From: a phage
Direction: 5' to 3' (one strand)
DNA length: 64,000 bases
Assembly (NCBI GenBank): GCA_031520405.1
Contig: GCA_031520405.1_4842.1
In this document: one piece after another, positions 52,104 to 57,014 of the stretch
Position numbering within the stretch: position 1 is the first letter of the stretch
Layout: each line of letters opens with the position of its first letter
Notes under the pieces: model-generated
Databases searched by the model: none
Told to the model about the DNA's origin: nothing
The model's input: the letters and a program-made list of their open reading frames with translations, nothing else
Translations under genes and position numbers: made by a program

Positions 52104-52138
52104 GGGGATAGAGCAATAATACCCTATCCCCATTTATT
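52104..52138 (-). terminator. GGGG hairpin element with flanking TTCAATAAA motif
   Basis: ggggatag / ctatcccc stem with 12-nt loop; T-tracts on both sides; paralogous to the element at 55335..55377. Confidence 0.45.
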
Positions 52139-52772: not shown

Positions 52773-52821
52773 AACAGAACCTTACTCGGTTTGGTTAGCT
52801 CCAGTTGGAGCTAACTGTGAA

Positions 52822-53391
52822 TTAGCCTTTAAAGCTGATCGGTTTCTGAACCCCGGCGTCGAAAGCAGCCTGGGTACGAGTATCGCTCACCACCTGACAG
52901 GTCTTGTCAAGATCGATGCGCGGGTATCCAAACACGCCAGCAATCAACGAACCAGGGAACTGGCCAAGTTTAGTTTCATAGATCGCACATGCGTCCAATT
53001 TTTTAGTTTGGCTAATGCGGAATTCATCCCGACCTGAGCTGATAACAACCTGAATCTCTTTGTACAAAGATGAATCAAACTGAATATTCTGTTCCTGAAT
53101 CCATTGCATTACTGCTTTAGAACCGTCTGCGCCATAACGGCCTTGGAAAGTATCTTTGATCACTTCCTTCAAACCGTTTTTGTACATGTCAGGAATCTGC
53201 GCCGTCTCCTGAACTTTGAGCGTGTAGTTGCTCAGGTGGTTTTCAGAATCTTTGTTGAACTTTTTGACCTGTTGTTCAATGCGGTTGAATTCATTGAAAT
53301 AGCTAACCACACTACCAATCCCAATTACAGCAAATGCTAGAATCGCCAACCCAACGATCCAACCAATTGAAATACCTTTACGTTGTGACAT
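52822..53391 (-). CDS. LemA-like membrane protein
   Basis: N-terminal TM anchor and C-terminal FPGSLIAGVFGY matching the LemA family FP..(I/L)(I/V)A..FGF signature; 189 aa. Confidence 0.55.
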   Translation of the reverse strand: MSQRKGISIGWIVGLAILAFAVIGIGSVVSYFNEFNRIEQQVKKFNKDSENHLSNYTLKVQETAQIPDMYKNGLKEVIKDTFQGRYGADGSKAVMQWIQEQNIQFDSSLYKEIQVVISSGRDEFRISQTKKLDACAIYETKLGQFPGSLIAGVFGYPRIDLDKTCQVVSDTRTQAAFDAGVQKPISFKG

Positions 53392-53406
53392 CTTTACTTC
53401 CTCTTG

Positions 53407-54516
53407 TTAAAACAAACGTTTATAAGTTCGACCATTGTACTGCATGCGGCCTAATATGAAAACTGCGGTAAAAGGGATACATCCAAACAGCACGACGATA
53501 ATCACTTCCCAAGTTTTAAGATCTCGCCATTTCAGATATTCCATTTCCTTCATCTCAACTCGGTTGTATCCCTTACTGATATTGACCGCAACTTCTTGGA
53601 ACACGGATATACCCATTGGTTTCCCAGTCAATGAAAGTCCGTTACGAGAATGGAGTTCCATGTTGTTCATGCCGTCGGCAAATGACGTAGACTTACCCCA
53701 ATTAATTTTCATATCCTTTGAAATATCGGTGACTACAATAACATCGTTCTTTTTACCGCCGGACCATGCATATAGAAGTCCCTGAAAATATTCAACAGGC
53801 TGGCCAGAAGTCACAACCCAAACGATATTAACCTGACGTGAAGCACCTAATGTTTTCAGAGTGTCGTTCAGATAATCATTCCAGTAATCAACAGGAATGT
53901 CCATCCCTGACATATTCAGAACACGGGTTACTCGGTAATAATCATACACCCTTGGATATGAAGGGATATGCTCTTTGAAATTCTCAGCGAATTGCTGGTC
54001 AGATTTAGAGAATAATGAATCTTTGTTGCCCAGCACATAATTCATATATGAATGTTCACGTGCCGCAGGTTCCCCGATTTTAACTTGTGCCCAACGCGGA
54101 GGCTCTGTAGTACCCTGACGATCAATACGGTCAATGCTCAGATCACCGACGGTTGTTAATACGTCCCAATCAACGTCATAAGAGTGCTCATAGCATGTGC
54201 TGCAATGACGCGTTTGTGTACAAGATCGGTTATTTCCTGAACCAGAGCAAGATGTTGTGTAATAGCACATACATTCATAAGAATGTTCACAACCCACCTT
54301 ATTCCGTTGCTTATCAGTTACATATCCATTCAAAATTTCCACGTCCCCAGAACTACCAAGGGAGAAAGCAGCATATAATCCCGACTGGATAAGGCAAGAC
54401 AATACGATAACAATGGCCGTGGCGATCAAAGTCTCCTTTGGCTCATGAGTCTTGCGGTGATATATCACAAACAAGATGGCCAAAATTACAGGAACCACAA
54501 ACAGAAGGTAAATCAT
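53407..54516 (-). CDS. membrane protein with Cys-rich module, LemA-associated
   Basis: 369 aa: two N-terminal TM helices, an 8-Cys cluster (CEHSYECMCYYTTSCSGSGNNRSCTQTRHCSTCYEH), a large soluble domain and a C-terminal TM helix; immediately upstream of the LemA-like gene. Confidence 0.5.
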   Translation of the reverse strand: MIYLLFVVPVILAILFVIYHRKTHEPKETLIATAIVIVLSCLIQSGLYAAFSLGSSGDVEILNGYVTDKQRNKVGCEHSYECMCYYTTSCSGSGNNRSCTQTRHCSTCYEHSYDVDWDVLTTVGDLSIDRIDRQGTTEPPRWAQVKIGEPAAREHSYMNYVLGNKDSLFSKSDQQFAENFKEHIPSYPRVYDYYRVTRVLNMSGMDIPVDYWNDYLNDTLKTLGASRQVNIVWVVTSGQPVEYFQGLLYAWSGGKKNDVIVVTDISKDMKINWGKSTSFADGMNNMELHSRNGLSLTGKPMGISVFQEVAVNISKGYNRVEMKEMEYLKWRDLKTWEVIIVVLFGCIPFTAVFILGRMQYNGRTYKRLF

Positions 54517-54899
54517 AACACACCATCCACGAGTTGTTCCTTCGTCATACCAAGGAGTTGATTTTTGTGAGAACTGTGCGCCCCGTTCAATTTGAGCAAT
54601 TCCCAGCGTTCTTCATGATACTGTGGAGTTATTGCATCGTCAAAAGAAACATGGTGGCGATGCATAATTGTTGCAACGGTGTGAAGAACGATTGCTGTTG
54701 CTCTTTTTAAAGCACGTGTATCCGTGATGTGGTCTTCGTATTCGATTCCCATCAAATCGAGTTCTTTTCGGATATATGCTATAGACAAATCACCTTCAGA
54801 ATGCAATTTAACAATAGTCGCTTTCTTAGGATGTAATGCGCCGTCTGTTTCTTTCATGAACAGATCGTACAAATATTGTTTGTATCCTGACTGCGTCAT
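54513..54899 (-). CDS. hypothetical protein (128 aa)
   Basis: ORF from track, start/stop overlap with neighbours. Confidence 0.5.
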   Translation of the reverse strand: MTQSGYKQYLYDLFMKETDGALHPKKATIVKLHSEGDLSIAYIRKELDLMGIEYEDHITDTRALKRATAIVLHTVATIMHRHHVSFDDAITPQYHEERWELLKLNGAHSSHKNQLLGMTKEQLVDGVL

Positions 54900-55321: not shown

Positions 55322-55364
55322 TTGCAAAAAGAAAGGGGAACGGGCTAATAATAACCCATTCCCC
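55322..55364 (-). terminator. GGGG hairpin terminator with flanking TTCAATAAA motif
   Basis: ggggaacggg / cccattcccc imperfect stem; on the minus strand it is followed by tttcttttt; near-identical architecture to the element at 52104. Confidence 0.5.
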
Positions 55365-55392
55365 TTTATTGAAGAACGCAATCGCAATCAGA

Positions 55393-55560
55393 TTACTTTT
55401 TCTTCAGCTCGTCCAGTTTGGCTTCGATTTGTTCCAGGATGTCTTTACCCTTCTGAACAATCACTTCACCGTCTTGCGCGTGTTTACGGAAGACCAGAGC
55501 GCCAGCTACGAAGCCGACAACAACGCCAGGAAGCGCGTACACCAACAGATCTTGTAACAT
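55393..55560 (-). CDS. small membrane protein (55 aa; below ORF-track size cutoff)
   Basis: Hand-translated ORF MLQDLLVYALPGVVVGFVAGALVFRKH... with GAGGA RBS 8 nt upstream; hydrophobic N-terminus; terminator immediately downstream. Confidence 0.4.
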   Translation of the reverse strand: MLQDLLVYALPGVVVGFVAGALVFRKHAQDGEVIVQKGKDILEQIEAKLDELKKK

Positions 55561-55596
55561 GATAATATCCTCACTTTATAGGTGAGGATATTTATA

Positions 55597-56832
55597 TCAG
55601 CGCTTCAACAAAGACATGAGGTTTACACTGGTCGACTTCGGATTGTCCTCTATCTTTCGGACGGGCATTTTCAGATTAGTGTAAACCTCAGATGGTTCCC
55701 AACGCGTACCCTGCTGCAGGTGCCATATATGTAGAGGAACACCCGTCTCAAAGAACACAGGCATCTTCCACTTCTGGACGCCAGGAACGTGCCCTGTAGG
55801 AGCTTTTTCGCACAACAGGGTATCTGGTAGCCAGAGGGAACGGGCTTCCCAGAGAGGCGCACAGGAGTATTCAGGCCAAATACGCTCCATATAATCGATC
55901 TCGTCCCATGTACGCTCGGCGTCCCACCCGATGTAACGGGTATTCTTCAGTCGGAAGAATTTCTTCAGCCAACAAGCACCGGAGGTCTCAAAGTTCAGAC
56001 GATTGATAAACGTGATGTGGCCGAACTCTTCAACGCATTCCTGAAATGCTTTCTCAAGGTCGGTTTCGAGTATATCACATTCTTCGTCTGTAATAGGACA
56101 ACCGTTGATCTTTTTCTTCCCGTGCTTGGTCACCCAGTCGTCACGGTTTGACAAGAATGCCGCGCCGTTGCGGTTGGACTCGCTGCCATCGCGGTCACGC
56201 AACATGAAGCCAGGGACGTCTATATCCCATATGTTACCGAAGACCATGTTCAGGGCTTCCAGGAAGTTCCATGCGCTCAGGCGACCGAAGTATTTCCATG
56301 ACATCGCCGTATTCCACAGTTCAGTGAACTGGTCTTCCTTGGTAGTGCATTCCAACATCCAACGAAAAGAATCCATTTGGGTTTTACCACCCAACCAATC
56401 GATATAGGACTGAACGCACGGAATCATCTTCGACTTACGATAACGACAATCTGTATCGAAGCGCATACGATCAAAGTTCAGGTTATACCAATCAGAAAAT
56501 CGCTGAAACTCTTTCGGAGATTGTGGGGGTACAGGAAATTCACTGTAAATTGTCCATGGTCCAATCCCATTATAGCAACAACCCCACAAAAAGGCCATCC
56601 AAATCTTGCGCTCGATCTTCTCGAGCTGTGTGATGCCTTCTGTAACCTCTATGGCATAATCCATCAGACGGACTTGCTGGTTATGCTCTTCAGTGTAGGA
56701 TAGCGCCTCCACCCATGCCTTGAGCAGGTACATGCGATTTTCTGGCTTACGATAATCTACTGCCAGATCAATCGGGTATTTCCATTTTTCAGGGGCTTTA
56801 TATCCCTGCGGCATTTTAGAAATGTGTATCAT
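55597..56832 (-). CDS. hypothetical protein (411 aa), Trp/Cys-rich, candidate enzyme of unknown function
   Basis: Long conserved-looking ORF with no motif I can assign; co-oriented with a P-loop kinase-like gene and small membrane proteins. Confidence 0.55.
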   Translation of the reverse strand: MIHISKMPQGYKAPEKWKYPIDLAVDYRKPENRMYLLKAWVEALSYTEEHNQQVRLMDYAIEVTEGITQLEKIERKIWMAFLWGCCYNGIGPWTIYSEFPVPPQSPKEFQRFSDWYNLNFDRMRFDTDCRYRKSKMIPCVQSYIDWLGGKTQMDSFRWMLECTTKEDQFTELWNTAMSWKYFGRLSAWNFLEALNMVFGNIWDIDVPGFMLRDRDGSESNRNGAAFLSNRDDWVTKHGKKKINGCPITDEECDILETDLEKAFQECVEEFGHITFINRLNFETSGACWLKKFFRLKNTRYIGWDAERTWDEIDYMERIWPEYSCAPLWEARSLWLPDTLLCEKAPTGHVPGVQKWKMPVFFETGVPLHIWHLQQGTRWEPSEVYTNLKMPVRKIEDNPKSTSVNLMSLLKR

Positions 56833-57014
56833 CCGATTTTACTCCCGAGTTCAACACGGAACGCCAGATAGAAGAAAGTGGCGATCGATACAGGACATAT
56901 CACCAAGAATGGGCGCTGTTGCACCCCTTCTGTGACCATGACGCCGACCAGCGAAACCGTAAAGATAACGAACATCAACATCATGAAGATAAAATCAACC
57001 TGCTTGATTTTCAT
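56829..57014 (-). CDS. small membrane protein (61 aa)
   Basis: Two hydrophobic helices. Confidence 0.4.
   Translation of the reverse strand: MKIKQVDFIFMMLMFVIFTVSLVGVMVTEGVQQRPFLVICPVSIATFFYLAFRVELGSKIG

Follow-up and report, generated by a model that had tools for sequence, protein, structure and literature searches.

The DNA analysed here, which we call the window, is a 64,000-nucleotide stretch of phage DNA (assembly GCA_031520405.1, contig GCA_031520405.1_4842.1). Its source genome is a Kuttervirus (Ackermannviridae, Vi1-like) with 98.7 % identity to Salmonella phage BSP101, and the label "T4-like" used in an initial sequence-only reading does not hold in the strict sense. That reading had placed a 369-aa ORF directly upstream of a 189-aa ORF on the same strand, and this arrangement is borne out with exact coordinates. 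The features of the locus are the following:

52104..52131, minus strand: strong intrinsic-terminator-like hairpin (12-bp stem and T-run), downstream end of the pair's transcription unit
52822..53391, minus strand: 189-aa LemA-like protein (PHROG 1383, E = 1e-87; homologs Vi01_204, LIMEstone1 ORF195, Sajous1 gp96)
52924..52959, minus strand: motif FPGSLIAGVFGY, aa 145-156 of the 189-aa protein, from HHalign to the canonical LemA motif FPxxxxAxxFGF
53293..53367, minus strand: N-terminal TM anchor of the 189-aa protein, aa ~9-33, from the AF2 model and hydropathy
53407..54516, minus strand: 369-aa TPM-like inner-membrane protein, the partner (PHROG 2087, E = 6e-167; homologs Vi01_203, LIMEstone1 ORF194, Sajous1 gp97)
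53434..53520, minus strand: TM helix 3 of the partner, C-terminal, aa ~333-361, from AF2 and hydropathy, followed by a basic cytoplasmic tail
53569..53922, minus strand: TPM-like alpha/beta domain of the partner, aa ~199-316, from AF2, Foldseek and weak PF04536 matches
54037..54348, minus strand: Cys/His beta-rich ectodomain of the partner, aa 57-160, from AF2 and Cys covariation
54355..54435, minus strand: TM helix 2 of the partner, aa ~28-54, from AF2, hydropathy and the positive-inside rule
54448..54516, minus strand: TM helix 1 of the partner, aa ~1-23, from hydropathy and an AF2 helix at 4-20
54513..54899, minus strand: 128-aa ORF (phrog_5047) whose stop overlaps the partner start codon (ATGA)
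55332..55367, minus strand: strong intrinsic-terminator-like hairpin (16-bp stem and T-run), upstream end of the pair's transcription unit

The two ORFs of the pair are separated by 15 nt, and the downstream, 189-aa gene has a good Shine-Dalgarno sequence (GAGGA) in front of it. Because of the strength of the PHROG matches and the hundreds of homologs, we regard both ORFs as genuine genes rather than chance reading frames. The 128-aa ORF is co-transcribed with them; it is Ackermannviridae-specific and is not kept beside the pair in other lineages, placing it, as judged from gene neighbourhoods, outside the conserved module. The LIMEstone1 annotation carries equivalents of both terminators, the downstream one after ORF196. 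In Kuttervirus the pair is located in a non-structural region with DNA polymerase on one side and rIIA/rIIB on the other. A sequence scan addressing the timing of expression found no enrichment of σ70-like sites, and the distance from the upstream terminator to the first ORF of the unit is too short to fit a promoter. A single T4-late motif sits upstream of the upstream terminator. The PADLOC defence-system models gave no match for the partner. Their weak LeoBC match to the 189-aa protein (E = 1.8e-4, 18.8 bits) covers the TM/coiled-coil segment only and was rejected as compositional.

The sequence-only reading attributed a LemA architecture to the 189-aa protein, with an N-terminal anchor and a C-terminal signature, and both elements are present. 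The anchor is the only TM helix and follows a basic N-tail (MSQRKG); the predicted topology is N-in with the C-terminal domain periplasmic. In the AF2 model the protein forms a helical bundle (helices 9-64, 68-82, 87-100 and 107-143) with a very long first helix, as also described for LemA-like domains (bioRxiv 10.64898/2026.07.15.738315). The combination by which a LemA protein is recognised, a TM anchor plus a ~150-aa helical bundle with a long first helix, is thus found in the model. Fold searches with the bundle were non-specific and did not separate LemA from other helical bundles.

Single-sequence searches of Pfam, NCBIfam and PDB sequences gave no meaningful match for either protein, and the 189-aa protein does not match Pfam PF04011 (LemA) even at E ≤ 1. 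Among 50 relatives of this protein LemA is the commonest weak Pfam match, with sub-threshold PF04011 matches in six (best E = 0.0016). When the family profile was compared with 177,635 PDB sequences, the LemA structure 2ETD ranked first (E = 0.025, collinear). An HHalign comparison of the full-length family with 28 Pfam-positive LemA proteins gave a probability of 96.2 %, a value that is inflated, as about 30 units of the score come from the TM helix, which by itself yields probabilities up to 81 %. Controls by reversal or full column shuffle are too lenient here since they destroy the TM helix. For these reasons we rely on the soluble domain only, which aligns with canonical LemA collinearly over 126 columns with a probability of 55.9 %, E = 1.1e-4 and a score of 33.5. 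Shuffled controls for the same domain scored 12.9 ± 2.9 (column shuffles, maximum 20.9) and 14.1 ± 3.0 (block shuffles, maximum 23.8), putting the observed score about 7 sd above the shuffles. With 2ETD as the top PDB match, this result indicates that the LemA-like assignment is not spurious and that the 189-aa protein is, on profile evidence, a remote LemA homolog lying below the Pfam threshold.

The divergence is extensive. Of the canonical LemA motifs the C-terminal one alone is recognisable in the 189-aa protein, and FPGSLIAGVFGY itself is conserved in the Kuttervirus branch only. Family-wide the motif shrinks to F/W...G...aG[YF]P, with conservation around it limited to G155 and P157. The motifs QRRxDLIPNLV and ENYPxLKA are replaced in the phage family by LSxYTLKxxExAQVPxMY and GRYGxDGSKAVMQWIQEQN.

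The 369-aa partner was modelled by AF2 with a pLDDT of 89.2 and a pTM of 0.79. It had been described as having N- and C-terminal TM helices; the C-terminal helix stands, while the N-terminal part consists of two helices rather than one. TM helix 1 lacks a positively charged n-region and is therefore not a classical signal peptide, and the N-terminus is predicted to be periplasmic. A short basic loop (HRKTHEPKE), cytoplasmic by the positive-inside rule, precedes TM helix 2.

The reported cluster of eight cysteines in the partner has to be corrected to seven cysteines (76, 82, 84, 90, 99, 105 and 108) and two near-invariant histidines (78 and 111); the protein has two additional cysteines, within TM helices. 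The cluster lies in a domain with AF2 strands at 57-74, 80-91, 98-108 and 114-121. Among relatives, C84 and C105 are both present in 44 and both absent in 12, and C90 and C99 are both present in 52 and both absent in four, with no sequence having a single member of either pair. H78, C108 and H111 are lost jointly in one subfamily (GAP32-like) that keeps the rest of the protein. We predict from the model a disulfide ladder on a beta-hairpin, and H78/C108/H111 possibly form a His2Cys metal site. This beta-domain is phage-specific and missing from the canonical bacterial TPM partners. Strictly covarying Cys pairs occur in both the 189-aa and the 369-aa proteins.

The second ectodomain of the partner (aa 199-316) has the order beta-alpha-beta-alpha-beta-beta-alpha-alpha in the AF2 model and is followed by a TM anchor, as in the bacterial partners. 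The family hallmark in this domain is W-x-GGKKND-V. The top five Foldseek matches to the partner include 9H70, the PF04536 protein LMTP1 (prob 0.99, E = 1.5e-3), 2KPT (prob 0.90) and 8C7I (Psb32), and TPM structures are the sole matches at prob ≥ 0.9. As the query has several domains, the TM-scores reach only modest values (0.44-0.48 on the target). AF2 and Foldseek together identify the alpha-beta-alpha sandwich with a four-stranded sheet that defines the TPM fold.

Sequence comparisons are less decisive for this domain. The partner does not match PF04536 (TPM; gathering threshold 22.1 bits) even at E ≤ 1, and its profile found no PDB sequence at E ≤ 10. PF04536 is nevertheless the commonest weak Pfam match in 56 partner relatives, with sub-threshold matches in 12 (best E = 1.8e-4; examples 17.6 and 12.4 bits), each time aligning aa ~202-260 with HMM positions 13-74. 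HHalign of the partner, run with the full length or with the TPM region alone, against a thin profile of five bacterial TPM partners scored 19.7-22.4 (probability 1.5 %) with shuffles at 17.2 or below; the score is not significant, and the alignment covers the expected TPM region, with W-GGKKNDV against GIG-K-NNGVLL. When the most divergent members of the pair were used as bridging sequences in Pfam, neither LemA nor TPM was matched.

One explanation for the weak likeness to LemA and TPM is convergence, the pair being an unrelated phage membrane module in which a TM anchor with a generic bundle meets a generic alpha/beta sandwich. The missing Pfam matches for both window proteins, the non-specific fold searches with the bundle, the non-significant partner HHalign and the high probabilities obtained from a TM helix alone are all compatible with this explanation. 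We nevertheless consider it quite improbable. The soluble-domain score stands far above its shuffles in a collinear alignment, 2ETD ranks first in the PDB profile search, and Foldseek singles out TPM structures. Two independent weak signals correspond to the two halves of one bacterial gene pair, which makes a chance likeness unlikely.

The sequence-only reading stated that bacterial LemA is usually found beside a partner membrane protein. In the bacterial genomes that we looked up, a TPM_phosphatase gene directly follows canonical LemA in four out of five; the domain of the phage partner resembles the very class of protein encoded beside bacterial LemA. The phage pair resembles the bacterial LemA (PF04011)-TPM_phosphatase (PF04536) pair in several ways: two adjacent co-oriented genes; an N-terminal TM anchor with a ~150-aa helical bundle ending in FPxxxxAxxFG[FY]; a TPM-type alpha/beta domain with a TM anchor after it; and both large domains predicted to be extracytoplasmic. 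It differs in that both phage proteins fall under the Pfam thresholds and that the motifs RRxDLIPNLV and ENYPxLKA (LemA) and GYGLEGxxPDGK (TPM) are replaced. The gene order is inverted, with the TPM-like gene first. In place of the signal peptide of the bacterial proteins, the phage partner begins with two TM helices; it also contains an additional Cys/His beta-domain of 100 aa and lacks a Gly-rich C-terminal tail.

The same pairing is widespread. In 24 of 30 metagenomic or bacterial loci, genes of the phage type are direct neighbours with the same orientation; in four of the 30 the partner has no LemA-like neighbour, three of these being in high-GC genomes. Lak megaphages have the LemA-like gene and no detected partner. 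These two exceptions count against the reading as a LemA-TPM module given below. The homology search found 487 and 498 phage records with each gene and near-identical counts per genus, so that ~490-500 phage genomes of many lineages carry both. Carriers include Ackermannviridae, T4-like and T5-like phages, ICP1, Rak2-like jumbo phages, Acinetobacter myophages and phiW-14. The partner family comprises 2,131 representatives at 50 % identity, with uniform length and full-length matches. We found no third conserved gene beside the pair among the loci compared; an apparent neighbour cluster at five loci consists of antisense ORFs overlapping the LemA-like gene. Loci from cultured Achromobacter and Variovorax have a RecA-like gene, an MscS-like gene and ORFans as neighbours, and clear phage genes were not found there. 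In phiW-14 the pair comes after the baseplate genes gp5/gp25.

Across Ackermannviridae genera the pair is 83-88 % identical while the flanking ORFs are 64-75 % identical. Identity to the Aeh1/PX29 homologs is 43-48 %, compared with only ~30-35 % for the DNA polymerase against T4-like phages. From these identities the pair appears to evolve about as slowly as core (replication) genes. Within the partner family, 13 columns are invariant and 28 near-invariant across sequences that are ~35 % identical.

The sequence-only reading put forward superinfection exclusion, envelope-stress sensing and lysis timing as candidate roles. The slow evolution argues against superinfection exclusion, in which the inner-membrane pair would block genome entry or the cell-wall-degrading activities of later phages. 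Exclusion genes are usually small, lineage-specific and fast-evolving, and the pair occurs in phages that differ greatly in host and in injection machinery; the number of invariant partner columns points the same way. The predicted inner-membrane anchors with large periplasmic domains, the non-structural location between DNA polymerase and rIIA/rIIB in Kuttervirus, and the absence of both proteins from virions (below) would suit such a role, which we judge unlikely. The T4 proteins Imm and Sp (superinfection exclusion) and the holin T with its antiholin RI offer a precedent, being phage proteins of the inner membrane that act on the envelope in infection through their periplasmic domains, with those of T and RI interacting with each other. 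They are unrelated to the pair in sequence and fold. They are also lineage-restricted, in contrast to the pair, which is found across many families of phages and has a homologous module in cells.

Both proteins are absent from two published Ackermannviridae virion proteomes: ORF194 and ORF195 from the 39 proteins of LIMEstone1, and gp97 and gp96 from the LC-MS/MS list of CsCl-purified Sajous1 virions, a proteome sensitive enough to show traces of RIIA/RIIB. The finding that would have overturned the membrane reading, detection of both as virion components by proteomics, was thus not made, and the label "virion structural protein" is unsupported in these two proteomes. That the 189-aa protein might be a minor particle component, structural or ejected, is suggested by the names "virion structural protein" or "putative structural protein" in RefSeq records of Ackermannviridae, Erwinia, Acinetobacter and Vibrio phages and in PHROG 1383, and by the position after baseplate genes in phiW-14. 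Its absence from both proteomes, its nature as a TM-anchored homolog of a cellular membrane protein and the position of the Kuttervirus gene outside the structural block render this very improbable. Where the names "virion structural protein" and "host lysis protein" come from could not be traced in the searchable literature.

The latter label, borne by the partner in the Vi01 record (Vi01_203), raises the possibility of a function in lysis: through its periplasmic domains the pair might work as a holin/antiholin-like system or a sensor for lysis inhibition, or as a regulator of either. Against this, the T4-like Aeromonas phages and ICP1, which also carry the pair, have holin systems of their own. 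We found no stated basis for the label. The vicinity of rIIA/rIIB and weak matches to holin families in a few relatives would fit lysis control, but those matches are restricted to TM helices, the endolysin gene is not next to the pair, and Aeh1 has no late-promoter motif within 7 kb of it. A list of core lysis genes of Vi01-like phages without a holin leaves room for the idea (PMC10892097). Nevertheless, known holins do not resemble a 369-aa protein that has two folded ectodomains and is homologous to a non-lytic module ubiquitous in bacteria, and we give this explanation little credence.

Alternatively the partner ectodomain may be catalytic on an envelope or periplasmic substrate, with the LemA-like protein as its membrane tether. 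For some TPM domains a phosphatase or ATPase activity has been described (PMC13456599), and the polar residues K255, K256, N257, D258 and R319 of the partner are strongly conserved. The jointly lost H78/C108/H111 triad is suggestive of a metal site. The enzyme could be a phosphatase/nucleotidase, or a metallo or redox enzyme at the His2Cys site, modifying or scavenging its substrate. Against this, the GYGLEGxxPDGK loop, invariant in the five bacterial TPM partners, is absent from the phage partner family consensus, several TPM proteins are non-catalytic adapters, and the GAP32-like subfamily does without the putative metal triad while retaining the remainder of the protein. We consider a periplasmic enzyme improbable.

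Taken together, these results suggest that the pair is very probably the bacterial two-gene LemA-TPM module of the inner membrane in a highly diverged form carried by phages, and not part of the virion. The proposal of a bacterial-type module in a phage, made from the sequence alone, is strengthened by the evidence for LemA, for TPM and for their pairing. In our model the partner would insert with its N-terminus out, TM helix 1 leading through the cytoplasmic loop to TM helix 2. Its ectodomain, a disulfide-stapled Cys/His beta-domain plus the TPM-like alpha/beta domain, would reside in the periplasm and be anchored back into the membrane by TM helix 3. The 189-aa protein would be single-pass and N-in, with its LemA-like bundle in the periplasm. 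We infer the periplasmic location from the positive-inside rule, from the covarying Cys pairs in both proteins and from the literature, in which the LemA C-terminal domain is predicted to be extracytoplasmic (PMC3905215).

Both proteins may then join in one periplasm-facing inner-membrane complex, before or independently of virion assembly. Such a complex could serve as a scaffold or adaptor: by binding and modulating some machine of the inner membrane or envelope that the hosts have in common, it would sustain or reprogram an envelope function over the long infection cycle of large virulent phages. The scaffold/adaptor mechanism is a tentative proposal that may well be wrong in itself; for the whole picture, a diverged LemA-TPM module acting as a periplasm-facing scaffold or adaptor, we lean slightly towards acceptance.

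The scaffold role is proposed by analogy to MamQ, ML0451c and the TPM adapter subunits AscF, MOLO-1, CcoZ and Psb32 (PMC13456599, PMC8267372). MamQ is a LemA-family protein of magnetotactic bacteria required for magnetosome membrane formation (PMC4902198, PMC3905215), and is the sole LemA member tied to a cellular process, membrane organisation (PMC4902198). Like the 189-aa protein it is single-pass with the LemA-type bundle on the non-cytoplasmic (lumenal) side; unlike it, MamQ can be recognised as belonging to the LemA family and has a specific insert of its own. It acts with other Mam proteins and not with a TPM partner, and membrane invagination is unreported in infections by phages bearing the pair. 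MOLO-1, AscF/AscG, CcoZ and Psb32/TLP18.3/LMTP1 share with the phage partner a membrane-tethered alpha-beta-alpha sandwich of very low sequence conservation and are adapters or maintenance factors of membrane complexes, not obvious enzymes. Unlike the partner they have no LemA-like pairing and no fused Cys/His beta-domain.

It is conceivable that the pair forms a widely conserved "envelope-takeover" complex with which large virulent phages remodel or re-tune the inner membrane of the cells they infect. This periplasm-facing, disulfide-stabilised and possibly metal-binding LemA-TPM assembly might organise an infection-specific membrane domain, as with MamQ, or control a respiratory or PMF-linked complex, as with AscF and MOLO-1. 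We regard this bolder hypothesis as doubtful, but if it is true, phage genetics would provide the first functional handle on a ubiquitous and uncharacterised bacterial module.

The bacterial LemA-TPM genes are among the most widespread membrane gene pairs and have no established function. Large virulent phages from many families, ~500 of them sequenced, inherit together a diverged version of the two genes that includes an extra Cys/His domain, and metagenomes contribute more than 2,000 protein clusters. This wide co-inheritance together with the slow evolution implies a conserved, selectable role in infection. Current annotation obscures this role under the name "hypothetical protein" or, with the names "virion structural protein" and "host lysis protein", probably gives it a wrong label. 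Genetically tractable and biologically important carriers are at hand, among them Kuttervirus CBA120/Vi01, the Vibrio phage ICP1, and therapy candidates against Acinetobacter and Klebsiella. With deletion mutants of such phages it would be realistic to uncover a new interaction between phage and host envelope and, by the same means, to learn what the bacterial module does.

Both open reading frames that the sequence-only reading had placed in this Kuttervirus (Ackermannviridae, Vi1-like) are present on the minus strand, within a seven-ORF unit bracketed by two hairpins:

53407-54516, minus strand: partner ORF, 369 aa
52822-53391, minus strand: LemA-like ORF, 189 aa
55367-55332, minus strand: strong terminator-like hairpin, one end of the seven-ORF unit
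52131-52104, minus strand: strong terminator-like hairpin, other end of the seven-ORF unit

A gap of 15 nt separates the two genes, with a ribosome-binding site (GAGGA) ahead of the 189-aa gene. A 128-aa ORF lies upstream of the 369-aa gene, its stop overlapping that gene's start codon. The bracketing hairpins agree in position with annotated terminators of Dickeya phage LIMEstone1, and the unit has the DNA polymerase/ADDT (amino acid:DNA transferase) region on one side and rIIA/rIIB on the other. By megablast, the 3.2 kb around the pair matched 232 phage records, Salmonella phage BSP101 being 98.7 % identical. A further hairpin at 52794-52815 (minus strand; perfect 9-bp stem, 4-nt loop, GTTAGCTCC-AACT-GGAGCTAAC) lies about 6 nt past the LemA-like gene's stop codon; since no T-run follows, its role may be in RNA stability or processing instead of termination.

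Several small membrane-protein genes cluster in this early/middle region, among them a 61-aa ORF predicted to have two TM helices (56829-57014, minus strand) just upstream of the ADDT gene, equivalent to LIMEstone1 ORF187. A 55-aa ORF (55393-55560, minus strand), whose product has a single TM helix and a coiled-coil tail, lies between a late-promoter motif of T4 type, TATAAATA, at 55589-55596 (minus strand) and the very strong terminator at 55332-55367 (minus strand), making up a compact, apparently late unit of one membrane-protein gene; LIMEstone1 ORF191 is annotated with the identical arrangement. Its product could be a small membrane protein related to lysis or assembly. Vi1-like phages have a thymidine hypermodification pathway, to which the 411-aa ORF at 55597-56832 (minus strand) presumably belongs, as it strongly matches Pfam ADDT (E = 1.9e-57) and weakly aGPT-Pplase3. 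Phage phiW-14, which also has hypermodified DNA, likewise carries the pair, probably by coincidence.

The proposal that the 189-aa protein is LemA-like was upheld by profile comparison with Pfam silent, no LemA match being found even at E <= 1. The profile of an alignment of 50 relatives, compared with all PDB sequences, best matched the Thermotoga LemA protein 2ETD, collinearly and weakly (E = 0.025). HHalign aligned this profile to 28 Pfam-positive canonical LemA proteins at 96.2 % probability over 137 collinear columns, a full-length figure inflated by the TM helix (soluble domain alone 55.9 %, E = 1.1e-4), the alignment ending at the motif FPxxxxAxxFG[FY]. LemA is also the commonest sub-threshold Pfam match among the relatives (6 of 50).

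With 56 relatives as input, AF2 modelled the partner confidently (pLDDT 89, pTM 0.79): two TM helices at the N-terminus are followed by a beta-rich domain (aa 57-160), an alpha/beta domain (aa ~199-316) and a TM helix at the C-terminus. Foldseek ranks LMTP1 (9H70, prob 0.99) first in the PDB; 2KPT (prob 0.90) and Psb32 (8C7I) are likewise among the top five, and all three are TPM-domain proteins (PMC13456599). TPM is the commonest weak Pfam match among the relatives (12 of 56, best E = 1.8e-4), invariably at aa ~202-260 against HMM positions 13-74. HHalign against the bacterial TPM partners aligned aa ~202-260 without significance; TPM domains keep their sandwich fold while their sequences diverge extremely (PMC13456599). 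An exhaustive HMMER search returned 2,131 representatives (50 % identity), almost all 340-390 aa long and matched over their full length; the family is thus discrete, its architecture fixed.

Canonical LemA genes directly precede a TPM_phosphatase gene in Bacillus, Thermotoga, Carboxydocella and Sporosarcina, bearing out the idea of a bacterial-type module, whereas the phage order is reversed. A scan of 185,579 species genomes turned up 30 partner-encoding loci; in 24 of these the LemA-like gene directly adjoins the partner gene on the same strand, a contig end cuts off two more, and four have no adjoining LemA-like gene. The pair recurs in related phages and across many lineages: 487 records of the isolate-phage collection carry the partner and 498 the LemA-like gene, and the two tallies nearly coincide in each host genus. 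Carriers comprise Ackermannviridae, T4-like Aeromonas phages (Aeh1, PX29), Rak2-like and other jumbo phages, ICP1, T5-like Vibrio/Providencia/Pectobacterium phages, Acinetobacter myophages, phiW-14 and Atu_ph07. No recurrent third gene family was found next to the pair. In Lak megaphages the LemA-like gene stands by itself: Prevotella phage Lak-B6 (locus L044, 3336-3881) has a clear homolog (E = 6e-33 to the family HMM), and no TPM-like partner could be detected up to 3.5 kb away on either side, whether read with genetic code 11, 15 or 4. The original observation stands with minor corrections and its interpretation is supported and sharpened: the pair is a phage-specific version of the bacterial LemA-TPM module, for which we found no prior description in the searchable literature.

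Partner homologs without a LemA-like neighbour occur in three high-GC MAGs (L024, L027, L028: Kofleriaceae, Deltaproteobacteria and one binned as Enterobacteriaceae). A nearby ORF in L024 and L028, judged by eye, has N-terminal sequence resembling Ser/Thr protein kinases, so the partner family may have a chromosomal role unconnected with phages. Large contigs of the cultured bacteria Achromobacter anxifer LMG 26857 (L005) and Variovorax sp. WDL1 (L013) carry the complete pair among ORFans, a RecA-like and an MscS-like gene, in regions that may be prophages, mobile islands of another kind or chromosomal loci.

The 189-aa protein falls in phrog_1383, labelled 'virion structural protein', a name also used in RefSeq Ackermannviridae copies (L032, L001, L041). 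The records of Pectobacterium phage DU_PP_V and Serratia phage Yaphecito give homologs the name 'major capsid protein'. Virion proteomics found neither protein: the 39 proteins of LIMEstone1 lack ORF194 (partner) and ORF195 (LemA-like) (PMC3296691), and the LC-MS/MS list of CsCl-purified Sajous1 virions lacks gp97 and gp96, respectively, with trace RIIA/RIIB present (PMC10892097). A virion role is thus very improbable. The Vi01 record (NC_015296) names the partner Vi01_203 'host lysis protein', beside the LemA-like Vi01_204; lysis control by the pair is in our view unlikely. The original submissions read 'hypothetical' or 'conserved uncharacterised', no origin for the 'virion structural protein' or 'host lysis protein' name was found in the searchable literature, and the labels seem to have been passed from record to record without support.

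Between genera of Ackermannviridae, identity is 83-88 % for the pair, 64-75 % for flanking ORFs and ~87 % for the ADDT gene; Kuttervirus and Aeh1/PX29 pairs share 43-48 %. The DNA polymerase is 85 % identical to that of a Klebsiella Ackermannviridae phage and ~30-35 % to those of T4-like phages. Such identity across lineages indicates strong constraint on the pair, its transfer from one phage lineage to another, or both. This pattern is unlike that expected of an arms-race exclusion factor, and we consider superinfection exclusion a doubtful role.

Hydropathy and the positive-inside rule predict a periplasmic position for the partner ectodomain and for the LemA-like bundle; the partner's cysteine cluster has seven cysteines rather than eight. 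C84/C105 (both in 44 relatives, neither in 12) and C90/C99 (52 and 4) never occur singly. The two pairs disappear in separate lineages, each with its own substituting residues, and their positions suit the cross-strand register of the predicted beta-hairpin. The two cysteines of the LemA-like protein covary as perfectly (29 both, 21 neither, 0 single), all these counts coming from related sequences and so not independent events. The paired cysteines fit an oxidising compartment. Joint loss of H78, C108 and H111 in the GAP32-like subfamily hints at a putative His2Cys metal site.

TPM proteins mostly serve membrane complexes as adapter subunits and are otherwise weak phosphatases (PMC13456599, PMC8267372), and a periplasmic enzyme role for the pair seems improbable. 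Only one LemA member, MamQ, has been linked to a process, the formation of the magnetosome membrane (PMC4902198), a mycobacterial LemA-like domain has been proposed as a membrane scaffold (bioRxiv 10.64898/2026.07.15.738315), and lemA and a TPM gene rise together in Flavobacterium under envelope stress (PMC13236525). By analogy with these systems we tentatively favour a scaffold/adaptor: the phage pair may form a periplasm-facing inner-membrane complex, which would act on some envelope or membrane machine that hosts have in common.
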